From Haliotis rufescens (taxonomy: Eukaryota), in NCBI RefSeq assembly GCF_023055435.1, contig NW_025964223.1, positions 60,388,001 to 60,452,000 of the forward strand: a DNA stretch of 64,000 nucleotides, written 5' to 3'. Under the pieces are notes generated by a model that saw only the letters and a list, made by a program, of their open reading frames with translations, was not told where the DNA came from and did no database searches. A program made the position numbers and the translations under genes. Numbering within the stretch: the stretch's first letter is position 1; the number at the start of each line of letters is the position of its first letter. Positions 6,001-40,148 of this stretch are shown here, piece by piece.

Positions 6001-9000
6001 CCAAATAGAGCAGACTCACAGTATACCTGCAGAACCCACAGCTACAGTGATACAGTTACAGAACGAGTGAGTGAGTGAGTATGGTTTTACGCCGCTCTAG
6101 CAATATTCCAGCAATATCACGGCGGGGGGACACCAGAAATGGGCTTCACACATTGTACCCATGTCGGGAATCGAACCCGGGTCTTCGGCGTGACGAGCGA
6201 ACGCTTTAACCACTAGGCTACCCGACCGCCCCAGTTACAGAACGAAGTAGAAAGACTAGAACAATATAGCAGAAAGAACAATGTTTTGTTATTTGAAGTT
6301 TCGGAAAACAGTGAAGAAAACAAAACTGGTTGTAAAGATGTTGTTTGTGACATTCTAAATTCGGGGAAAACAACAGCTGACATCGTTGAGATACGTGTCT
6401 CTTCTAAATGGTCGCTGTGATACGGATTTAGGTATAGGTGATTATACTTACATCGGTCACTCAGGCTCCAGTGTAATTGACTACATTATTGTATCCAATA
6501 GTCTATTCTTCCACTGTAACACATTTGATATTGTGTCGAGGGCAGAATCCTCACACCTTCCACTATCTTGTTCATCTCAAGCACGTGACCTGGAGATTCC
6601 CGTTGAGACAGCAGGGGCCGCACGTGCGCCTCGTGAAAACTACCACTACGTGTGGGACATGGCGAAACTACAACAGTTCAGGGATAATCTTGTATTGCCA
6701 CACGTGGTTGATTGTTTTGAACAATGTACTCTGTTACTACCAGATAATATATATGGTGCACGGACGCCATTTATACAGCTGCTCAGTGCATGAAAAGGAC
6801 TTGTAAGTCTCGCGACAGCCACTCACAACCCTGGTGTGACAGTGTGTGTCGGTACTACAGGTGGGAGAGAGAGAGAGGTGTTTCAGAATATATAGACATC
6901 TTAAGAATGATAGCACCTTAGTTAGTTATTCAAAATCAAGAAATACTTATACACGTTAATTAGTGATAAAAAGAAAAGTTATAATGAATATATGCGTAAT
7001 AAGGTTTTATCTTGTCTTCCAAATAGTAAATGTTTCTGGTCTACCATAAGAGCATTATTTTTAGAGTGTGGCAGCTCTTTTACCTAACATATCACTAGAA
7101 CAATGGGTCGATCATTTTAAAGATGTGTTTGACAATCCAACAGATGAAGATATGGTTATCACCGATACAACTATTAATGATAGTCATGATGATATGAGTT
7201 GCTATATTCTGGACTCCCCAATTTCACAAGAGGGGGTGCTATGTGCCATCAACTCTTTGAAATGTGATAAATCCGCAGGAAATGACCACCTCATTTCAGA
7301 ATTTGTTAAATATGCGAGTGATATTTTTGTCCCGTATCTTACAGTGCTGTTTAATAAGTTGTTTGATAATGCATACTTTCCTGAATCTTGGTCTTTGGGA
7401 ATTATTGTTCCGATACATAAGCGAGGAGACATCCATTCCCCATCCAACTATAGGGGTATATCAGTCCTTAGTGCACTGAGTTAGTTGTATCTTTCTATTT
7501 TGAACGGAAGGGTCACGTCTTGGTGTGAGGTCTATGGTAAAATTGCAGAGTCCCAAGCTGGTTTTCGTCGTGATTACTCCACCATAGATAATATCTTTAT
7601 ATTACAGTGTATTATACAGAGATATATCAGTAAGCGTAAGGGTAGGGTATATGGTTTGTTTGTCGATTTTGCAAAAGCCTTCGACAGTGTAAACCGGATG
7701 AAATTATGGTCAATACTAGTCAATAAAGGTGTCTCTGGCAAAATGATAAAAGCTATACAGTCTATTTATACAGCTGTTAAGGCCAGTGTTAAATTTTAAC
7801 ATTCATTTTCTGAAATGTTTCAAAGCGTATTGATGTTCTAGAAAAGTATTGTAATGATTATGATCTAGGTGTCAATTTGGATAAAACCAAGGTTGTTTTT
7901 AAGAAAGGTGGAGTGTTGTCAAGAAAAGAGATTTGGTATTACAAAGGTCTAAAGTTGGAGTATGTGTCTTCCCATAAATATTTGGGCGTTACTTTTACGA
8001 GAAGCCTGTCCTGGTCAAGTCATTTCTCTAATGCTGGTTTACGATGGAAAAAAGCAATGTTTGGAATTTTAAAGTCATTAATAAAATTACATCCTCTTCG
8101 ACATGACTTATATTTTAAAATATTTGATATGAGTGAGTGAGTTTGGTTTAACGCCGCTTTTAACAGTATTCCAATTATATCGCGGCGTGTCAGCTTAATG
8201 TGGGAGGAAAGCTCAAAGTGATGCAGGTCTCAGACGTATACCACTTCGGTGAAACCCACGAGCACGGGTATGGTGCTGACAAACCTAGAAACATAATCGG
8301 GGCCAGCCGGAATTTCGAACCCACAATCATAGGTTTCTGGCGTGCCCAAGGGACGCAACTCTGCACAGCGATCAACGATCAATGCATTTACCAGTATTTA
8401 TGTTATTTGTTTGTACAGATAACAGATTAAATACGTATATATAGTGACTGCTAAAAAGTCATGTATGTGTAATCTTATACCAGTACATATGCAAAATTAT
8501 AAAAATATATCAAATAAAGTAAGAACATTGTGCAATGCAGGTAATTATTACTTTTTATGTTAAGAGAAAAAAGAATGACATAAATTCGTTTGCGTGGGAA
8601 TTTGAAACATATCAGTTTAGAACAAGGAACATAAAAAAGCAAGGTCTGACGAAATTAAGAATGAGTTTGATTTATTACAATCATCTGATCATTGTCAAAG
8701 CAAACTGGATGTAGGCGATGTTCATACAATCATCAGTATTGAGATTGAAAATTAGTTTTTTTATTTCCAAGATCCCATGAAACGTTATCATCGTAGTGTT
8801 TGGCAACAAACAGCCACCATTCATCCATAAAATCTGTTTATACACCATCCACTAATTAACCCCAACAAAAATCAAAATGGATTTCAGTGATTTCACTTTC
8901 ATTTTTGTAATTTGTATTTTGATATGTAGTTGATGAGAATTTGTCAGTGCCTGTCTTTTCACAATGTTTTGAAATATGATGCTCACCTCTTTCAGTTATA

Positions 9001-24845: not shown

Positions 24846-25490
24846 TCAAAGACCAGCATAGGTTGCTGGGAACATGTTCAAAGACCAGCATAGGTTGCTG
24901 GGAATATGTTCAAAGACCAGCATAGGTTGCTGGGAACATGTTCAAAGACCAGCATAGGTTGCTGGGAACATGCTCAAAGACCAGCATAGGTTGCTGGGAA
25001 CATGCTCAAAGACCAGCATAGGTTGCTGGGAACATGTTCAAAGACCAGCATAGGTTGCTGGGAACATGCTCAAAGACCAGCATAGGTTGCTGGGAACACG
25101 CTCAAAGACCAGCATAGGTTGCTGGGAACACGCTCAAAGACCAGCATAGGTTGCTGGGAATATGTTCAAAGACCAGCATAGGTTGCTGGGAACATGTTCA
25201 AAGACCAGCATAGGTTGCTGGGAACATGTTCAAAGACCAGCATAGGTTGCTGGGAACATGCTCAAAGACCAGCATAGGTTGCTGGGAACATGCTCAAAGA
25301 CCAGCATAGGTTGCTGGGAACATGTTCAGAGACCAGCATAGGTTGCTGGGAACATGCTCAAAGACCAGCATAGGTTGCTGGGAACATGCTCAAAGACCAG
25401 CATAGGTTGCTAGGAACATGCTCAAAGACCAGCATAGGTTGCTGGGAACATGTTCAAAGACCAGCATAGGTTGCTGGGAACATGTTCAAA
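24846..25490. repeat. 32-bp minisatellite x~20 derived from a family 2 SINE segment
   Basis: Unit TCAAAGACCAGCATAGGTTGCTGGGAACATG(T/C). Confidence 0.95.
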
Positions 25491-25639
25491 CCCCATGGCG
25501 TTTGTCAAGTTTCCACATAGAAGAGTATTGAAGACATGAATATTGTTATGTCCAGTTTAATTTGTATCGTCTGAAATTAGTGTCGAATAACAAAAACATG
25601 AACATTCCCCACAGAAATTTATTTCTCTTTTTACATGTC

Positions 25640-28410
25640 TCACTGGTACCCAAAGCTCTCGATAAGTTGCTGCTCTTTCTTGACTCTGGGCAGGACATTT
25701 TTCTTGGCTTGTTCTCTGAGACGCTGTAACACAAACAGAGAACTTATCAAACCTGTCTGGTCTGCAACAACTCTGGCAGCTGACCACAATGGAAAGCTCT
25801 ACATCACATCTGATTAAGGCAGGGGGCACTGTAGCTCAAAAACTATATCTGCCAATATCTATGGGTTTTACAGGTTAAGAAATGCATCAACAGTCCCGAA
25901 AGTTCTGGTGTATTTTATTCAAAATGAAAGAATTATCTGACAATTTTCACAATGCAATATTTATTTGTCTCTTAAATTTGCTTTTTGTCTGCAAAAGAAG
26001 CTTATAACTATGTGACTAATGTTACAAAATAAAGGGTCACAGCTACAGTGATAGAACAAAGGGACACTATTTATCTACACATAATTTTGAACTAAAAATC
26101 TAAGTGCACTGATAAACTAAATGCTTATTTAGTACACCCGTCCCTGTCAGTCTCAGCTGGTAGTGCATGTTGCTATTTTCATCAATATCAATACCAGGTT
26201 TTTTTATCATCACTGACCGACAGGATCAACTTCGGATGTGGTACACATGAGTAACGAAACAACCAAGAGCTACAGATAAGCAGCATAGTTGCGTAAAATA
26301 CCCCGCCAAAATAATCAAAACCCAATTACTTTCAATTAACTCGCGTACAGATACAAATGCATTACATGACAAACTCAAATTATAAAAACAGCATCCGTAA
26401 ATACCCAAAGAAAAAGCTTTTTCAGCATGTGAACAAAGGAGCTAATTTCGGGAAACACAATTACGAGCTAATTTACTTTCCAAGTCAAGCCAATATATTT
26501 AGAACCATTAAATACTCTTAAAACATTATTTCGGTTTTCTTAAATCTTAAAATGTTCACCAATTTTGGGAAATACACAAAAGAGTGATGAATAGATGAGT
26601 GAAAAAATATTGGTTACCCAATAAATAATGTTATAACCCAATTAAAATAGAAACCCTAGAGTAAAAACTCGATTGCTCAAAAAGTTATCTGGAGCTCTGC
26701 AACCTCAGCTCTTTAGTTCTTCTAGATCTTTACGAGTGTTTGGCATGTTAAAACCAGCAGACTGGACGCTATATCTGAACCTACTCTGCCACAGGATTCA
26801 ACACAGTATCAGTAACAAACTTTATGACCAAGGTTCTCTTCTCAAACATTAGGACCATAAATGCAAACTAAATTTCCCTCATGCCAATTAGTTTCCGCAA
26901 GATAAAGGCATGCTTCTTTACCTCTGTTCAATTTGAATTATGTTATGGACTTGGGCCTATTAACACTTAACAGAAGCAGCCAATCAATAAAAAGAAGAAT
27001 ACTCTATTGTTAAAGACTATTAATAAGATTGTAGACAAATTGTTTTCTTCAAAAGTTTGTAAAAAAATTTCAAACGGTTTCTTTCAAAACTATGAAAAGG
27101 TGTATTTCCAGGTCATTCAACTGAGATGGAGATTTTTGGAGACTTTTCAAGCCTGTCCAAAATGTGCTTAAGCGAAAATATAATTCTGATACTTGTCTTG
27201 CTCAAACCCACAATGATACATTCATTCTGATTAATAATCAGAAAAGTCACTCTGTGTGGGATCAAACCTGCCATCAGCAGATCCTGGTACAGTTACAATA
27301 GATAACTCTACTAAACTGGTGAGTTAGTTTGGTTTTGAGCCGCTTTTAGCAATATTCCAGCAATATCACGGCGGGGGACACCAGGAATGGGCTTCACACA
27401 TTGTACCCTTGTCAGGGATCGAACCCGGGTCTTCGGCGTGATGAGCAAACGCTTTAACCAGTAGGCTACCCGACCGCCCCTCTACTAAACTGTGACAACT
27501 TACAAGTGTTGACTTCCTCCTCTTGAAGTAATCATTTGATTTGACCTTCCTCTTTTCTTCAAGCTTGGCCACCACTCCCTGGTACATCCAGCCAACCTCC
27601 TTCGACAGGCGGTCCAGCTGACAGAACTGGAACACAACCACATCATCACCACGTGTCTTCACTGGCACGAGAACAGTGTCAAAAGCCTGTGCTTGTCTCA
27701 GATGGTAGTGCATGTAAAAGCTTTTTTCATCAGCTTCAAAACGCTATGGGATGAGTAAACATCACAGACAAGCTCACATAGAAACCATTACCTTAATGCA
27801 TCAGACTTTTGACAAGGATGAAAAATGAGGTGACAAGCTAATCAGGGATGCATACACCTTGAATTATTGCTAATTACTTCACGAACTATATTTTAGGAGA
27901 GAGTAGTCCCTCAATCTTTGCTGGGGGACTTCATAACCTGTTAATGATAGGGATATTTACCATCAGCAATATCCCAGCTGTATCGCAGAGCACAGTTATT
28001 GTTTTTGGTCTGGATCAGGTAAACCAATGAAGATCAAAATCATGGCAGGGGACACCAGAAATGGGCTCCACACATTGTACTCATGTGAGAAATCAAACCC
28101 AGATTTTCGGTGTGACGAGCAAACACTTTAACCACTAGGCTACCCACCGCCCCTCTTAACAAGTGAGGATTACAGAAGGCACCAATGTCTTACCCTGCTT
28201 GTGGGCTTCAGGCGGAGCACTTTGAGAGCAGAGGGAACAACCTGCCTCTTCATCTTGTCATAGGGTCCGGGGATCCCCTCAAACATCTTCAGCTTCCTGA
28301 GGGCAGCTTTGCCACGAGGCTGCTTGTGGGGGAGCATACCTGCAAGACAACACGTCGGTCAGTGAGGGGCAGGCAGTGGTTACTGGAGTGAACCTGGTTG
28401 GGAGGGGTGA

Positions 28411-28449
<39 letters not shown>

Positions 28450-31400
28450 CTTCAGTCATGGGACCATGACTAACTGGTTGGTTGTTTAATGCCCCACACA
28501 GCAATATTCCAGCTATATTAATCGAGTCTGGACCAGACAATCCAGTGATTGACATAAGCATCGATCCACCAAATTGGGATCGATGATATGCATCATCAAA
28601 GTCAGAGTGACCACCCAATCCTGTCAGTTGCCTCTTACGACAAGTATAGTCGCCTTTTACAGCAAGCATGGGTTGCTGAAGACCTATTCTAACCCGGATC
28701 TTCACGGGCCGAGTGATCTTAGTAATAAGCTGTCTCAGATGGTAGTGCATGTGAAGTGGTTTCATCAACTTCAAAACGCTATGGGATGGTATAAACATCA
28801 CTGACAAGCTTCAAGTTTATAACAGACATCACTGAATACATAGTAATCAGCATGGGACCCTGTTTTGTTTTGTAGGAACATGGTTGCTGGTAAACAAGAT
28901 TACCATCAAAGTCAGGGCTAGAAATAATGTACTTTCTCAAAAGTCAACCTTTACAGAATCAGCACTGGTTACATTTGATCAACTAAGTTTGACACTTATT
29001 TTGCTTTGATTCATTCAGCACGTAATTTGACTTGCAAACGACTTCTAATTTTGATTGCCTATATAGACCTCTGTCTACCTAACGTCTATGAAGTGCCTAC
29101 TCGTACTTCAACCACACAGGGTCTACCTTGGCAATACATTATAAATGGCACCACTGAGGACAATGTGACAACAGTTTTCGGGTTTGGTACAGGCATGTTT
29201 TACAGGGGTGTTCAATAGCTGTCTCAGATGGTAGTGCATGTGAAGTGGTTTCATCAACTTCAAAACGCTATGGGATGGTATAAACATCACTGACAAGCTA
29301 TATATCTAAACAATGACAGCACAAAGGAAATAAAGAAATAAATACTGATAATTCAGTTACCTCAACCTGTGAAAACTCAGTATTTCAAACAATCTATAAA
29401 GGGTCTCAAGGAGCTATTTAGATAATAGACTAAAGAGGATTGTGAGCGAGATACCCAAACACTGAATAGCTTCAAATAATGACAGTGGCAGTAGCAGCCA
29501 TTACAGGGGTGTTTAACAGCTGTCTCAGATGGTAGTGCATGTGAAGTGGTTTCATCAACTTCAAAACGCTATGGGATGGTATAAACATCACTGACAAGCT
29601 GTATTTTCACAACGACAATTAGTTTGATTAATACCCCAACAGCATCACCTGCTTAAGTTCACAACAGACATCCCTGAACATTGGTGAATGCTCTCCCCTG
29701 TGGGACACATTTCCAACATGATTTCTGGTGAGCACAAGACAAACCTCCAAAATCAGCTGAGTTTGACATTTACCCTTGGTTTCAATGTGTGCATGACACA
29801 ACCTATTCTTTATTTTCAATCATTATCTAAAACTCTGATATTGGAAAATGACTTTAATACATAGTGATTGAAAGTAAGAGGGGGCCTCAAGATCTATGGT
29901 ATTTTAATCTAGTGACCCCTGACATTCATGCTTATTTCGAACACTGTACATAAATATTCAGGTAAAATTTACTTGTACATATATATTCAGGTAAAATTTA
30001 CTAGTGCATATATTTTTCACTCTTTATCTAACTAGTTTCTTCTATGTTGAATCTGATATCTACCTTACTGTCTTAATGTGCATACAGCTTTAAATATTAA
30101 TGATTCATACTGTGACATTTATAATTTGACCTGGAAACTACTTCAATTCTGACTGATTAATGTAGCCTTCAGCTACTATTACCTCAAACCTAGGAAATGT
30201 CTACATGTTCTTCATTTGTTTTATGCCGAAGTCTGCAATATTGCAGCCATATCACAAAATGCCAAAAATAATCAAGTCTGGATCAGACAAAATAGTGATT
30301 AGTATAAGAGCAACATCATGTCCTCAGATCAGAATGACACAATCAACCCAAGGCGTCAAGACGACAGACCACCTGTCTAAACTTATATCGCCTCTTACAA
30401 AAAGCAACAGAGAAGATAATTAGGTGAAAGATTAAAGATATCAACACCGAGACATGACAATAGTGGCACAAGCGTGTGCTTATGGGGGTGGGGGTTGTTC
30501 ATGGCGATTGTTCTATATAGCTGTCTCAGATGGTAGTGCATGTGAAGTGGTTTCATCAACTTCAAAACGCTATGGGATGGTATAAACATCATTGACAAGC
30601 TATATATGTAAATAATGACATCACCTTATAAGAAATGAAGAAAAAGAAATAGCATTAACTCATCTATATGTCCAAAGCAGGGGAGGAATGCTCAGCAGTT
30701 TCTATCAGAAAAAGAATATTTTCACAAGTATTCAATGTAGGTAAGGATAATCATCACATAGAAACTGCTCTGTTCATAAGATGGATCACACTCAGACAAA
30801 CTCTTACTAAACTCTATTCTCATTCTACAGACACAACTTTGAACATCTGACATTAAATGATTTCACATACCAGGATAAGACTTGAAGTAACCAGTCTTAA
30901 ATGGAAAGAAAAGAACATTTAGGAACCATTCCTATGAGAACTTAAAGTATGATTACATTTTCCTATCTTACAAATTAAATTCTTTATTCAACGCAAATTA
31001 CTTGCATCTTAATCACTAACTTCACAATGAAGATGGTCACTGAATTGATTAACATCCTTATTTTAATGACTCGTTGACTTCATTTCCTCAGTTTTGTGTT
31101 TGTCTTCAGGTTTCGGACAATGTAGGTAAAGTCATCACTGGAAATGATAAGATGGTAGTAGAAATATAAATTACAATTAGTCACCACTTTAGACTTCCAT
31201 ATTCTAAGGTTTGTTTCTATTTACTTCTAGAATCCTGTGAGACTGTCGTCTCATCCCTGCAAAACAGTGTGTGATGAGATATGATCATGATTCTTTGAAA
31301 GTGACATACACCTCAGACCTGTCATCAAATCCTACAAATAAAGCGCCCATAATACCATAGAAAATTAACCTTGTTCAAGTTTGGTTGTACCATTTCTCCT

Positions 31401-34400
31401 TCAGATACCTTAACCTCTGACACAATGTGACAACTCCATTCTGACTGCCTCATTAAACCTCCGGCCACCCTAAAGTCACACCTAGGAAATGCCTACTCAT
31501 AACTTAACCCTTGGGGTCCACCAAGACAATACACTAAAGGCAAACATAGCACAATATGACAACAGTTTAAGTGTGTTGTACAGATAGGTTTTTTGGGGGT
31601 GTTCTATAGCTGTCTCAGATGGTAGTGCATGTGAAGTGGTTTCATCAACTTCAAAACGCTATGGGATGGTATAAACATCATTGACAAGCTATATATCTAA
31701 ACAATGACAGCACCTTCTAAGAAACAAAGAAATATCAATAATTCAAATACCTCAGTGTTCCCGTTTACCGTTAATTTCACATTTTTAACCAGCAAAATTA
31801 GGCTTGGACTGGTAATTCATGTGACTACCAGTCCCTGTGGACCGGCAAAGTATCTCATAAATCTTTGTTGTTGAACAAGACGTCAGCGATATTCATATAG
31901 GTAAGTATATTTTTCGAAACGAAGCCTGCTTGTCTGTTAGTTAACTATCAGGATTTCTCCTTTTCTGTTTTTAGTGCAATGACATAACATTTCAGTTGTT
32001 TCGAGGTTAAATATATATTTGTAGCAACTTAGTCTCAAAACATTTGAAAATCAGAAAATTGTGACTGAACTTTGTGTGAATGATGTGTAGATCGAACTAA
32101 GTTACTCCAGAGATGTCGTCATTGCACTGAACATGATGTTGGAAGAATTAAAACCAGATTATTTCTATACATTTTTTTAATTGTTAAAAATTGGGACTGA
32201 CAAAAATGGGGGGAGAGAGAGGGAGAGGGAGAAGGAAGAACTGTTAAATTTTTACTGGCAGTTTCAAAAGCCAGTGGGAACACTGTCAACCTGTGAAACA
32301 ATGTGAAAGCACAGTGTTATAAACAATCTATAAGGGGTCACAAGGAGCTATTTAGGGAATACACTGAAGATACCGAAACACTGAATAGCTTCAAATAATG
32401 ACAGTGGCAGTAGCGGCCGTTACAGGGATGTTCAATAGCTGTCTCAGATGGTAGTGCATGTGAAGTGGTTTCATCAACTTCAAAACGCTATGGGATGGTA
32501 TAAACATCACTGACAAGCTATATATTTACCCAATGACAATTAGATTTGCAGCATCACCTGCTAAGAAGACACTTCATCAATAGAGGGTTGTAAATTTAAC
32601 AGTCGGGATGCAAAATGCCAGTAATTTATAGAGTTCTGTAGCTGCCTACTTAGACAAACCCATCTAAAAGTCCTTCAAATTATGACTTCTGGACATGCAA
32701 CTTAACAGCCACAGCATTGCCCATGAGCAAATGTTTCAATTACAAACACCATGGCTGGATTTTCTAGTAAACACAAGACTGAACTGTCAAGATGTGTCAT
32801 CACAATTTGATAGGACGTCTATTTTTAGCATGTCAATAAAAGAATGGATCCAGAGTATATATATATCATATTAGAATTGAGATATGATACACTGGATAAT
32901 TGAGAATAGAGGTCCAGATAGACATACTGGAAGTAGATATTTTAACAAGGTTTAGTTGATCAGCAGTTTCTATCAGAATAAGAATATTTTCACAAGTATT
33001 CAATGTAGGTAAGGATAATCATCATTTAGAAACTGCTGTTTGTTATATGTAACACAATGAGACACTGCAACAAAAACTTCTCAACAATGCCCATACTCTT
33101 TTCTTCAAATGTAACGGATAATTGAATGATACTTATGTGCACAATAGATCCATATCAAAGTTAAAGAATTTGGTCAAATTTCCTAAAACCTAACTTAAAA
33201 GAATCATTATTTAAATTGCAAGACCCAGTAATGAAAAACTACAAGCATTATCAAGCACAATATTTTTTTGAATGAAACAATGTTAACCTGTTAACCACCA
33301 GGAGAGACAACTGTCATGTATTTCAAATTTTTAAAACACTATTCATGGCTTGATGTTAGGATCTTGATTTAACTTACTTGCACCAAGTGCATGTTGACAA
33401 ACAACCTTGTTGCACCAGAAAAAACAGGTTGCCCCCTGGTCCAAGAAAACTATCAAATAATCCTGAAGTACCTGCAGTTTGATGTCAAGCCCCAAAAGCA
33501 TGACAAGTTACACATAACAGGGATTATTAACGTAGGAAAAGAAGGTTTAGAGGTATAAAATGTGTTCAGAGAGACAAATATTAGGTTGCACTGGTGCATA
33601 TTTTATATAGCTAAATCAAGCCCGGCTATCTGTAATTTCAAATACTTCCTACACAATTGAGGTAAGCTTATCTTAAATCCACACAGATATCTAGTTCATA
33701 TCATCGTATTGCATACCTATTTGTTAGCTACTAACCTACTATAGAAGAATGCACAAAGATGGCCAGTGAGTGGATCAAATGTCCTTTAAATAATGTCATT
33801 TCCTCAGTTTTGTGTTTGTCTTCAGGTTTCAGACAATGTAGGTAAAGTCATCACTGGAAATGACGTAGTAGTAGTAGTAGTAGTAGTAGCAGTAGTAGTA
33901 GTAGTAGTAAGATATATTACAAGTTAGACAATTCTTCAACACTTCGTTTATGGGAGGATTCTGCTCATTTAAATCTTACATAAAAATATATTTGGAACAA
34001 TGCCTGCAAATGAATCATTTAAGCCATGGTTTCAGTTGAGCACGTAAATGTTTAATGGTACCTCGGACAGTCCTCCAGAAGATCATCCTGGGAGCCCGGA
34101 AGTGGAATGGGCCGCGAGCAGGGTTCACGTTGCATCGCTTCTTTAGGAAGTCCAGGTACTTCACTGTAAACATACAGGTCAATCAGGGTAAGAACGGGTC
34201 AGTATCACTATTACACCACTATGATATATCCATAAACGTATACAATGGTATTTATAAGTACATGTGTAATATTTACATAGATTCCATCATGGATTCAGCA
34301 GAATTTTAAAACACACAATAGTTTGTCTAAAAATCTAAGCAAAAATTCTTTGAAAGCTTATTGCATTCATATTGTAATATACAACTTAACATTTGCTAAG

Positions 34401-36420
34401 GGCCAAAATAGGCTCCAAAATAGTGTGGTCCTCAGAAAATGTTTAGTCTTTTATCAATGTAATATTCATATGACATACACTTGAACAAAATATGTTAATT
34501 ATAACAAAGGTACTGCCATTAAAACAGCAATATACCACATGCATTCCAGATGCAACTTGAAAATCACTAAATTCAAGAACTTGTGTTTATAACAAGGATG
34601 TTAGTGAAATGGACACTATTACAGCAACGTCATTATTACAACAAATTGGATCAAAAACTTACATTTGTTTCTGTAGAAGTTGCCAGATATGCAGATACCT
34701 TCACATCTTACAATAACAACTCGCTGACCTGGAAAAAACATGTTAATAAATTTAATACTCTATCCATCCAACGTTTGACAAGTGATTTTTGTGTGGTGCT
34801 GGTTCGGTTTCAGTCTGACAACTGAAAATTCTACATTAGTTTGTTCTAATGAAGTATGCTACTATAAACATTTTTATGCATTTTCTAGTTTATGAAAGTA
34901 TATTTCTCTAATGCAATACCAGGGCAATAGGCATAGCACTAATATCAAAAAATGAAAATATATTCACTCTTTCAATAAAATAAACAACTTCAATGAAGAA
35001 TTTCTATACTGAATAATCACATTTCCTCAGGTCATAGGTGTCGTCATGGTTTCAGACAATGTAGGTAAAGTCATCACTGGATGGGATATTCAGTTTTGTA
35101 TACCATACAACTTCTGTCAGCGTTAAATATCAAGATTGTTGTAGGTCACAGTTATGAAAATAGCAGCAGAGATGTAAAAAAAGTTAAATGACTTGACCGC
35201 TTGTCGAACTGATGAATATTTACCTTGTAGTAGTGTCTTGGCAACAATTGAGGCCAGACGCCCGAGCAGATGCCCTCGGGCATCAATCAAAATGGGCTGA
35301 AAGCAAAACAATCAACCATCAGTTTCATTACCACAATATTAATAAAAGTGCATGAGGTGTATTGGTCATAATCTAGTGGCATGGACAAATCTTTCAGGTT
35401 TGGGGACTTCAACTTGAATTATTTTTTTAAAAAAGACACAAGTTTGTAATCAAATTAATGTTATCAAATAGTTGACCACTAAATATGATTCATGTTCATA
35501 CAGCCCTACAGGTAAAAACAAGACCCATTATGACTTCCACTACTCTATGACCATATAAAAATTAAGGTATCCTGAGTGCCAACATTATCATTCAGGCAAA
35601 TAAATGCTTCAGTTGAAGCTGCATCAATGTTGGTAAAAATTCACTTTGAATTAAAAAATAAACATATGTTGTGATAAGTGATGAAAAATGAGGTTTGAGC
35701 ATTAATATACTCACAAAAAATGTTTGGGATCATTAATATTTTATGGGAATTTGTTTTATGAAATTTTGAACTGTTTCACTACAAAAAAATATCCCCAAAA
35801 GTATTCAGGATACAAATAAAGAGCGATAAATATAAAGCTTGAGGTTAAGACATCCATTCAAATAGACTTTATGTTCCTGTTTTGCAAGGATTTCTCGAAC
35901 ATCTTGTTCGCTCAAAGGTGAAGATTTCAGCAGTACATATGGTAAACGGATTCTGCTACAGATAACTGCTATGACCGATAGGTATGGGATGTCTTATAAC
36001 ATGTCCAGCTGAAATAGCACAAGTTACCTCTCCTTTATAAACTGAGGCATCTCATTTGTGAAACGTATTCGGACATTCACATTAACCCTTCATCAAAGCT
36101 AACTGACGAAAAGGTGATCTGATTTATACACTTTCTGTGTGATACACACTTTGGGAAGAAATATTGCTCTTCTATTCCTGACAAAACCATTTTATGTGTA
36201 AAACACACTCATATCATTCTGTATCTTAAATACACGTGGGTTAGAATGCCTTTCACCGAGCATTACACGTAAGACGGAGCTTTCATATTAACATATTGCA
36301 CTAGAGCAGATCATAATGTTGATTTGCTGTGTACGGGACAACTTTTCTCGGTTCCTTTGGCTTCCAAACTGACAAAAATGGTAGCACACTGCCGTCATAT
36401 ACCTTGTTCTGAAAACCCAT
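25640..36420 (-). CDS. RPL13A: 60S ribosomal protein L13a (uL13), 203 aa; exons 36420..36403, 35296..35224, 34728..34663, 34163..34062, 28339..28194, 27626..27504, 25723..25640
   Basis: Translation [77 protein letters not shown]...GMLPHK...[10 protein letters not shown]...IESFGYQ*; 612 nt in frame; AATAAA just 3' of the stop (25618-25623). Confidence 0.97.
26143..26224 (-). ncRNA. SNORD33: Box C/D snoRNA, SNORD33 (U33)-type, divergent copy in RPL13A intron 6
   Basis: Minus strand: C GTGATGA, D' TTGA, C' TTGATGA, guide ACATGCACTACCA, D CTGA, terminal stem CCTGTC/GACAGG. Confidence 0.8.
26266..26700. mobile_element. MITE (~430 bp), same family as 44081..44512 in opposite orientation
   Basis: TIR AGAGCT.CAGATAA/TTATCTG.AGCTCT; the interior is the reverse complement of 44081..44512. 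Confidence 0.75.
27319..27480 (-). mobile_element. tRNA-derived SINE, family 1 (further copies at ~28044-28153, ~39513-39678, ~59850-60003)
   Basis: Same consensus; TSD CTCTACTAAACTG. Confidence 0.88.
27691..27773 (-). ncRNA. SNORD33: Box C/D snoRNA, SNORD33-type, RPL13A intron 5
   Basis: C GTGATGT, guide ACATGCACTACCAT-CTGA, stem GCTTGTCT/AGACAAGC; ends ~65 nt upstream of the acceptor, the usual position for intronic C/D snoRNAs. Confidence 0.87.
28728..28810 (-). ncRNA. SNORD33: Box C/D snoRNA, SNORD33-type, RPL13A intron 4 copy 6
   Basis: 83-nt unit AGCTTGTCA-GTGATGT...TTGA..TTGATGA...CACATGCACTACCAT-CTGA-GACAGCT; the 3' guide matches recalled vertebrate U33 and pairs with 18S UGGUGGUGCAUG. 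Confidence 0.88.
29217..29299 (-). ncRNA. SNORD33: Box C/D snoRNA, SNORD33-type, intron 4 copy 5
   Basis: Identical 83-nt unit. Confidence 0.88.
29518..29600 (-). ncRNA. SNORD33: Box C/D snoRNA, SNORD33-type, intron 4 copy 4
   Basis: Identical 83-nt unit. Confidence 0.88.
30519..30601 (-). ncRNA. SNORD33: Box C/D snoRNA, SNORD33-type, intron 4 copy 3
   Basis: Same unit with C box ATGATGT (change at the R position only). Confidence 0.88.
30694..30769 (-). ncRNA. Box C/D snoRNA, U34-related variant with guide CCTTACCTACA(TTGA)
   Basis: 11-bp terminal stem AGCAGTTTCTA/TAGAAACTGCT, C GTGATGA, D CTGA, and a 28S-complementary tract. Confidence 0.78.
31080..31147 (-). ncRNA. SNORD34: Box C/D snoRNA, SNORD34 (U34)-type, intron 4
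   Basis: Stem TCATTTCC/GGAAATGA, C GTGATGA, guide TTACCTACATTGT complementary to 28S ACAAUGUAGGUAA, D' CCGA, D CTGA. Confidence 0.85.
31608..31690 (-). ncRNA. SNORD33: Box C/D snoRNA, SNORD33-type, intron 4 copy 2
   Basis: Same unit with C box ATGATGT. Confidence 0.88.
31753..32285. mobile_element. TIR element inserted in a snoRNA spacer
   Basis: TIR CAGTGTTCCC/GGGAACACTG; the empty-site homolog is at 29350-29380; no clear TSD. Confidence 0.65.
32437..32519 (-). ncRNA. SNORD33: Box C/D snoRNA, SNORD33-type, intron 4 copy 1
   Basis: Identical 83-nt unit. Confidence 0.88.
32961..33038 (-). ncRNA. Box C/D snoRNA, U34-related variant, second copy
   Basis: Near-identical to 30694..30769; C ATGATGA; 12-bp stem. 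Confidence 0.78.
33795..33864 (-). ncRNA. SNORD34: Box C/D snoRNA, SNORD34-type, intron 4
   Basis: Near-identical to 31080..31147, with D' CTGA. Confidence 0.86.
33865..33909. repeat. (GTA)n microsatellite abutting a SNORD34 copy
   Basis: Seen directly. Confidence 0.9.
35021..35083 (-). ncRNA. SNORD34: Box C/D snoRNA, SNORD34-type, RPL13A intron 2
   Basis: C GTGATGA, guide TTACCTACATTGT-CTGA, C' ATGACGA, D CTGA; the 3' half has diverged from the intron 4 copies. Confidence 0.83.
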
Positions 36421-36480
36421 GATGGCTAAAAGGCCGAGTTAGGGGGTTACACGTGGTTTTCCAGGGACAAAACGGAAGTT
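36421..36480 (-). promoter_or_regulatory. RPL13A 5' UTR/promoter with a TCT/5'TOP-like pyrimidine tract and an ETS-like site
   Basis: Minus strand CTCGGCCTTTTAGCCATC-ATG; CGGAAGT at 36473-36479. Both are typical of ribosomal protein gene promoters. Confidence 0.5.
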
Positions 36481-36995
36481 GACTGGGGCCTTGTCTACTA
36501 AAATGTGTAAAAGCGGTGCGCTTGCGTTGCGTACCAACAGTGGAACCAGTTTAAAACGGAAAGAAAATCAAAGGGAGGCTATCCGCATTCAGTGTCTAGG
36601 AAACCCGCTCGAACTTAATAACGTATCACCATGACCTGCATATTGACACTTTTTGTTTTATTCTTTCTAAAAGAAAGAAATAGCAAAACTTAAATGGGAC
36701 AATGAAATATATAGACAGCCAACATTCATGTTTGCCAGGAAATAAATGGTCTTCATTATTTAATTCCCGTGAAGATTCCGGGCTAGAATTGGTTTTCAGC
36801 AAGAGAGCAAAAGGCGACTAGCGGGATCGGGTGGTCAGGCTTGCTGACTTGGCTGATTCATGTCATCGTATCCAATTTGCGTAGATCGATGTTCATGGTG
36901 TCAATCACTGGATTGTCTGTTCGAGACTCGATTATTTACCGACCGCCGTCATATAGCTGGAATATTGCTGAGTGCGGCGTAAACAACAAACAAAC

Positions 36996-38655: not shown

Positions 38656-40148
38656 TTGTTAATTGAGTTAGTTACACCGCCCCTCTTTTAGGGCGTCTCG
38701 CTCTGTCAATGAATTTGTTGTAATCAAACATTGATCAGACGAATGACCAAATATTATGATTTCAATCACTTGATTGTCAGGGCCAGACTCGATTATTTAC
38801 AGACCTCCATGATGTAGGTGGAATGCTGCTTAGTGCAACAAACAAGTCATATGAAGCCTAGTTACTTTTCCCGCTAGTACAGATTTACAATAGTTGCAGA
38901 ACTAAGTTCGCGTTGTGCTTGTGAGACCTGGGGCCAAAGGTCACGAGATAGAAAAGACTAAGAATACATGTAGTTTGTCATTAGACATCCTCTAAAGGTT
39001 GGGATACATTTGTCATTAACTTGGTTAATATCTCCTGTTTTGAAAAGTTGTAGATAAATCAAAGGTCAAGGTCAGCATTCTGTTTATTGTACTGAATCTT
39101 GTTGTTTACGTTTTTTTTTAACAAATCTGACCGTATAACAGGTCAGCCGCAGTTTTTATACTAAAGGTCAAGGTCACCTGAGTTAATTGTGAAATGCAGT
39201 CGTAATATTCTTCCTCTTGAATACAACGCAAATAATATTGGCATTAGAGGATTTATGCAATGGACTTATTCTTCATGAACCTGTGTGATTGTTTTGCCAC
39301 ATTTTGATAAGGTCAAGGTCATGAGATAGAAACATTTCACTCACACCTTTGTGGTTACTCTTTCTAAAGAAAATAGCTAACACAAACATCTCAAAACATA
39401 TGGTGCTATCACTATGCTGTTGTTTTCTGGTCACATTCCAAACATACCTAGTCTAATGTGAGCCCTTGTAATTGTGACAAGGTACAAGGGTGGTAAGTCA
39501 AACCAAACCCTCAGTGAGTAAGTGAGTGATTTTACGCCACTTTTATCAATATTCCAGGAATATCATGGTGGGGGGACACCAGGAATAGGCTTCAACATTG
39601 TACCCATGTTGGGAATCGAACCCAGGTCTTTGGTGTGACGAACCAATGCTTTAACCACAAGGCTACCCGACCGCCCCCAAAACCTCAGTAGTTGATATTG
39701 GCAGTATAGACTCTTGTACATTAATTAACTTCATCCACATCAAATTGCAGTTCCTCTCAGGTGATCCTCTATAAAATATATGAAAACACTCAAGCCCTTG
39801 TGACCACCAATAATATTCACCCAAGGTTCTTCTCCGTCTCGCCAATTCCTCTGACCCTCCAACAGTGGACAGTACCAATTGCCTCCTTTCTGCAGCCTGA
39901 ACCTCCCAAGACTGCCCCCTTCTTCTTCATTTTTTATTTCTACTCAGAACAGCTTTCTTATTAAATAAGCTTCTTGGTTATTCTCCAGGTATTTCCTCTT
40001 CATCTAGCTGCTGCTGCACATGCCCCTTATTCATCACACTGCAGGGCAGTTATCTCTCTCAACATGAAGGAGCAATGGGGTAGCCCAGTGGTTAACGTAT
40101 CTGCTTGTCACACTGGGTTCGATTCCCAACATGGGTACAATGTGTGAT

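Follow-up and report, generated by a model that had tools for sequence, protein, structure and literature searches.

SNORD33 orthologs in the RPL13A gene of the abalone Haliotis rufescens are predicted double guides for 18S and 28S rRNA methylation

A 64,000-nucleotide stretch of the Haliotis rufescens genome (assembly GCF_023055435.1, contig NW_025964223.1, positions 60,388,001 to 60,452,000), referred to below as the window, carries the ribosomal protein gene RPL13A (uL13) and, within its introns, eight box C/D small nucleolar RNA (snoRNA) genes of the SNORD33 (U33) family. Seven of these share a 14-nucleotide (nt) element before box D', and the SNORD33 orthologs are probably double guides, predicted from sequence to direct methylation of 18S rRNA at U1306 through box D and of 28S rRNA at C1338 through box D'. 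The host gene occupies 25643..36422 on the minus strand, from start to stop codon in seven coding exons, with its outer exon limits drawn by translation only. Exon 5 (28194..28339, minus strand) is supported by phmmer comparison with uL13 chains (E 1.5e-18) and by spliced contigs, and exon 6 (27504..27626, minus strand) by spliced RNA contigs and translation. Two of three host exon peptides match the Pfam family Ribosomal_L13, and the splice joint 27626/28194, with GT-AG ends, is present in RNA contigs of three of four runs. Intron 4 spans 28340-34061 and intron 5 spans 27627-28193; the SNORD33-type genes are all intronic and in sense with the host.

All eight copies match the Rfam covariance model RF00133 (SNORD33) in the window, at 48.7-54.5 bits against a cut-off of 44, and a search of the 1.33 Gb assembly reported only these eight among 60 candidates scored. 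All are on the minus strand. Six are in intron 4: copy a (32438..32517, D' guide 32484-32497), copy b (31609..31688, D' guide 31655-31668), copy c (30520..30599, D' guide 30566-30579), copy d (29519..29598, D' guide 29565-29578), copy e (29218..29297, D' guide 29264-29277), and copy f (28729..28808). Copies a, d, and e score 54.5 bits, copies b and c 52.8 bits, and copy f likewise exceeds the cut-off. The boxes were mapped in copy f, which has box C at 28795-28801, the D' guide at 28775-28788, box D' at 28771-28774, box C' at 28762-28768, the D guide at 28739-28751, and box D at 28735-28738. The intron 5 gene, of a divergent type, lies at 27692..27772 (D' guide 27740-27753, box D 27698-27701; 53 bits). 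The eighth gene, in intron 6 at 26147..26220 (48.7 bits), falls beyond the span covered by the original prediction, a reading made from the letters of the window before the present analysis; it has the 18S guide only and does without the 28S C1338 guide, its best match upstream of the box being 9 nt with three G-U pairs.

The original prediction held that the element before box D' is kept in all six intron 4 copies and in the divergent intron 5 copy, and this is borne out. The 14-mer is exact in seven of the eight SNORD33-type genes, those scoring 52.8-54.5 bits, six of them in intron 4 and one in intron 5. It occurs seven times in the window, always exact and always on the minus strand, and the count is unchanged when two mismatches are allowed; 0.29 occurrences are expected by chance, and none of 100 shuffled sequences reaches seven. 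Each of the seven copies has a box C one mismatch off the consensus, a box D reading CUGA, and a terminal stem of 5-7 bp. Their D' box reads UUGA, and their C' box is one mismatch from consensus. The snoRNA bodies in intron 4 are 99-100% identical to one another, and their 80-nt flanks align at 42-81%; the intron 5 body is 84-86% identical to the intron 4 type, with flanks that are unalignable between types (41-54%). Because the six intron 4 bodies are near-identical, they amount to one independent observation, and the seven copies must be counted as two independent types. One contig of another organism spans the intron 5 copy, with one difference in 201 nt, which is too close to inform; three other runs gave no cover.

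Two ribosomal DNA (rDNA) units were fetched from the genome, and every candidate box was scanned against the 18S, 5.8S, and 28S rRNA of one of them, the 28S (3,719 nt) being numbered from the Rfam large-subunit start. The 28S segment that the original prediction had named is present in this genome, where all 19 pattern matches read GGCGCTGTGGGATGAAC, and both target sites are kept in both rDNA types fetched. The partner of the D' element in 28S is the stretch 1334-1347, at the base of helix 39; the predicted duplex extends over 14 nt in the intron 4 type and over 15 nt in the intron 5 type, in which one difference adds a pair at position 15. Positions 3-14 upstream of D' form the core of the duplex (12 bp, with G-U at position 7), and positions 1-2 are also G-U. 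For comparison, the human SNORD48 duplex, which has been validated, has only nine pairs (PMC5027482). D'+5 falls on C1338 in a G-C pair, and the site is the best D' target over all three rRNAs, the runner-up reaching 10 nt. With 12-15 nt complementary to 28S of this genome, a Watson-Crick pair at +5, and D' and C' both recognisable, the element is far above the 10 nt at least that had been set for a second guide. For the box D guide, the match to 18S of this genome is 13 nt long (two G-U), with +5 at U1306, the equivalent of human U1326. Computed duplex energies for the D' guide are -24.7 (intron 4) and -26.1 (intron 5) kcal/mol, compared with -22.5 kcal/mol for the accepted 18S guide.

C1338 sits 10 nt past A1328, the match of human Am1871, and 338 nt past G1000, the match of human Gm1522, both anchors having been placed by short motifs. 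The corresponding yeast offsets (1133/1143 and 805/1143; PMC11014333, Table S4) are the same, and for this reason C1338 is, on sequence comparison, the equivalent of human C1881 (1868 in the older numbering). It lies in a GCUG context, and GCUG is the fragment that Krogh 2016 names (PMC5027482). The register proposed in the original prediction, with position 5 on the C1881/1868 equivalent, is therefore the one found.

A match of this kind could also be due to chance, or be a decayed relic, with its identity among copies kept up by recent duplication, gene conversion, or pairing within the RNA itself. Shuffled guides equal the observed score somewhere in the rRNA in 31 of 3000 trials for the intron 4 type and in 9 of 3000 for the intron 5 type, and 54 of 3199 20-mers taken from the window do so; taken alone, the shuffle result is modest support for a guide, as about 1-2% of random 20-mers reach such a score. 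The match must, however, also land in register on a known site, and the joint chance of score and register is estimated at a few in ten thousand (about 200 listed sites over about 5,700 positions). Comparison of the two types points the same way: between intron 4 and intron 5, none of the 14 guide columns differs, as against nine of the 20 spacer columns (Fisher P=0.003), and the flanks are unalignable. The near-identity of the six copies, the intron 6 copy that does without the element, and the pairing of four guide bases with the D guide when the RNA is folded without protein all fit an explanation by chance or decay, although such internal pairing accounts for only four of the 14 guide bases. 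On balance we regard that explanation as quite improbable.

The same 28S nucleotide has a known guide in vertebrates. SNORD48 was reassigned to human 28S C1868 by Krogh 2016 (PMC5027482), with nine pairs, fractional methylation, and mass spectrometry support, which upholds the identification of SNORD48 as the human guide in the original prediction. In the same source Cm1881 has a score of 0.63 in HeLa cells, a fractional mark, and the SNORD48-C1868 interaction has been captured in crosslinking and immunoprecipitation (CLIP) chimeras (PMC5389715). SNORD48 (U48; RF00282) and the abalone RNAs thus share a target nucleotide and the +5 register. They differ in the box that is used, since the Xenopus SNORD48 guide is located at box D (PMC8797249 supplement) and the element here is at D'; the abalone RNAs have no Rfam match to SNORD48, and by eye the Xenopus RNA has no similarity to them outside the stretch dictated by the target.

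These comparisons bear on the word "chimera" in the original prediction. Taken literally, it would describe a U33 gene whose 5' half had received a U48 gene by recombination. Human SNORD48 has a host gene other than RPL13A. A shared cytosine, a shared register with Xenopus SNORD48, and the failure to find a separate U48 gene would suit such a fusion. It is nonetheless very improbable, because the box differs and because the SNORD33 model covers the RNA in full (model positions 1-85), while Rfam finds no match to SNORD48 in the window; by eye, there is also a resemblance to zebrafish SNORD33 at the 5' end and in the part that precedes the D guide. The description as a U33-U48 fusion is accordingly the part that we do not retain.

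The search for a separate U48 ortholog, proposed with the original prediction, was carried out and returned no convincing gene in the genome, by RF00282 and five exact guide-plus-box patterns. RF00282 gave no match in the window and eight matches genome-wide, none over the cut-off (best 23.3 against 36 bits, with 66 of about 130,926 candidates scored). Pattern 1 gave 15 matches and pattern 3 gave eight, all of which were viewed. Pattern 2 gave 44 matches, seven of them in the window; 28 of the 37 others were viewed, and the remaining nine are units of one tandem array. Of 29 matches to pattern 4, seven were in the window, and 19 of the 22 others were viewed, the remaining three being tandem-array units. 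The single match to pattern 5 was viewed and lacks a terminal stem. These patterns pass over guides shorter than 8 nt, bulged guides, and guides in unassembled DNA. A script requiring box C and a stem of at least four Watson-Crick pairs passed the seven window copies and one other locus in the genome. That locus is an unlikely guide: it has no Rfam match and lies in a 1.5-kb inverted duplication whose twin has a broken box C. The two arms of this duplication (1473-2911 and 6596-8151 of the fetched stretch) are 78% identical and hold frames for short cysteine-rich peptides. Within the limits of exact patterns, no convincing candidate to guide C1338 was found other than the window RNAs.

As members of the SNORD33 family (RF00133; yeast snR55; fly Me18S-U1356/CD38), which the copies here match over the cut-off, the abalone RNAs can be set beside better-studied relatives. 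Zebrafish SNORD33 has an identical box D guide core, the 18S U1326-equivalent target, an rpl13a host, and adjacent U34-type RNAs (PMC7668251); it differs in having a single listed target and, by eye, no AGCG core. Fly CD38a and CD38b each have one listed target and a different host, Uhg8 (PMC11014333). Unlike these SNORD33 relatives, the abalone RNAs have a D' guide for 28S, 12-15 nt long, and there are eight copies, six of them in one intron. Double guides as such are well known and guide elements often move between carrier RNAs, so that the kind of system is ordinary: SNORD32A (18S G1328 and 28S A1524) and zebrafish SNORD52/202 likewise address two rRNA sites with one RNA, and known double guides have paralogs that keep one guide, as the intron 6 copy does here (PMC7668251, PMC11014333). 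The pairing of this guide with this carrier and the predicted mark outside tetrapods appear to be new. Neither the combination of 18S U1326 and 28S C1881 on one RNA nor a U33 with this second 28S guide was found in the literature searched, which lay outside subscription papers and snoRNA databases. A relic of a U32-type guide was considered and rejected: by eye, the intron 4 type has 6 nt of complementarity to the A1524 region and the intron 5 type has none. One exact pattern for a guide to the 28S A1524 equivalent gave four genome matches, none snoRNA-like; a pattern for the G1328-type guide, with 112 matches, was too loose to be of use. In addition to the eight matches of U33 type, neither SNORD35 nor SNORD32 has one at the Rfam cut-off in 25600-36500.

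Three small-RNA libraries under the same species label, with about 60% of each used, placed 6, 19, and 4 reads on the region 26100-28850. In two of the three libraries reads start at 28804 on the minus strand, 3 nt before box C (six and five molecules); such a start is as for a mature RNA, and the intron 4 type is therefore seen as a processed RNA, although these reads are not assignable among the near-identical intron 4 copies. The intron 6 single-guide copy has low small-RNA depth in two of the three libraries. The distance between the intron 5 copy and the 3' splice site, 71 nt, is the one favoured for intronic box C/D RNAs.

As a double guide, the RNA would be set free from the RPL13A intron after splicing and then trimmed to the 5' end that the reads show, 3 nt before box C. 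Assembly of Snu13, Nop56/58, and fibrillarin is established for the box C/D class, and here these proteins would be expected on both C/D and C'/D'. The D' element would then pair with its 14-nt stretch of 28S, and fibrillarin would methylate the nucleotide opposite position 5, the D' guide taking the role that SNORD48 has in human and frog.

A number of observations weigh against the double-guide reading. The D' box is UUGA rather than CUGA, and the D'-C' spacer is 2 nt, compared with about 10 nt in the Rfam consensus and 3 nt in the U34-type copies of this locus. When folded without protein, each type makes an internal hairpin of 6 bp (-4.4 and -4.9 kcal/mol) in which the GA of D' is buried; four further pairs, between guide positions 2-5 and the D guide, extend it. 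The comparison behind the constraint test involves a single independent pair of types, and a tract such as the guide could be made uniform by gene conversion. No reads for the intron 5 copy occur in any of the three small-RNA libraries. No other species with both guides was found, the search having covered metagenome contigs, which hold little animal DNA and are not evidence of absence; the sole match there to both guides lies inside a bacterial coding gene and was rejected as chance. In Table S4 of PMC11014333 the C1881 site has no mark for fly (nor for yeast, Arabidopsis, or Dictyostelium), and planarian C1276 is not in the lists of methylated sites given in the main text of PMC11649923. Finally, predicted guides can be inactive (PMC8522698).

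One alternative is that the D' element, though paired with 28S, serves as a folding chaperone or tether of the pre-rRNA, with a C'/D' region too tight or too masked for methylation. The 2-nt spacer favours this possibility, as does the D'-burying hairpin, which is kept in both types and in which, by eye, one pair changes on both sides between them. RNAalifold on three sequences found no double-sided change in 21 pairs, and its structure lacks the internal hairpin. Antisense elements that do not methylate are documented (PMC8522698, PMC5389715), and in Deryusheva 2021 non-functional elements overlap the C1881-equivalent site in vertebrates (PMC8522698). On the other side, position 5 lies exactly on the nucleotide that is methylated in human, mouse, and frog, a register for which a tether has no need, and folds of naked RNA disregard protein binding. 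The hairpin and tight spacer could lower or prevent D'-guided methylation, or the hairpin could be displaced by the core proteins. We consider a purely non-methylating role unlikely, though it is the strongest of the competitors to a methylating double guide.

In the comparative tables consulted, the mark is limited to human, mouse, and frog. Table S4 of PMC11014333 marks the C1881 site for human and Xenopus and lists a mouse position. In Xenopus the mark stands at about 0.90 and drops to 0.51 in the final stage of development (PMC8797249 supplement). The zebrafish catalogue has no C1881-equivalent entry in those of its supplementary files that were searched, 12 of 17 (PMC7668251), and for planarian C1276 the control values are 0.38-0.57 at the 3' end and about 0 at the 5' end, against a bar of 0.65 (PMC11649923, figures read apart from the colour coding). 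No methylation map of molluscan or nematode rRNA was found in the literature searched, and C1338 of 28S is an exact prediction for one animal group that has no such map in that literature.

Two origins of the D' guide remain: it may have been gained independently, in a D' slot that was free, or an old double guide may have been kept. An independent gain of the same mark would speak for a recurrent benefit of modifying this position at the base of helix 39; the alternative is an older origin with several losses. In a tentative version of the latter, to which we give a small but real chance, the C1881 mark is an old bilaterian one, first placed by a double-guide U33 in RPL13A, passed to SNORD48 in tetrapods, and lost in fish, fly, and planarian. 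If this were true, a vertebrate mark that varies and is regulated in development would be matched in an invertebrate by one that is linked, through a single RNA, to a near-constant 18S mark.

Other features of the locus were noted. Box C/D RNA genes usually occur one per intron; intron 4 has ten in 5.7 kb, namely six of U33 type, two of U34 type, and two shifted U34-like RNAs, an array that is the product of local duplications (100-320 nt, 79-97% identity). Three ordinary U34-type copies, all on the minus strand, lie at 33804-33854 and 31088-31138 in intron 4 and at 35027-35078 in intron 2; they pair with 28S over 15 nt and place +5 on U2149 (human U2837). The two shifted RNAs, at 32973-33025 and 30705-30757 (minus strand), were not found by Rfam at the cut-off. 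Their D' is 4 nt closer, so that +5 falls on 28S G2153 rather than U2149, with 12 nt of pairing; for the human equivalent, 2841, there is no site-table row among the two of three occurrences displayed from the PMC11014333 supplement. At least two rDNA types, only 93.5-93.8% identical, are present in the assembly, with units of about 10.0, 10.4, 14.9, and 16.0 kb among the arrays, and these may be divergent rDNA classes or foreign DNA. A tandem array with a 32-nt unit lies downstream of RPL13A at 24850-25490. Matches resembling tRNA at 27320-27480, 28040-28150, and 39570-39680, with four others, are copies of a tRNA-derived short interspersed nuclear element (SINE), and the near-cut-off Rfam tRNA matches in the window are most likely the heads of such SINEs.

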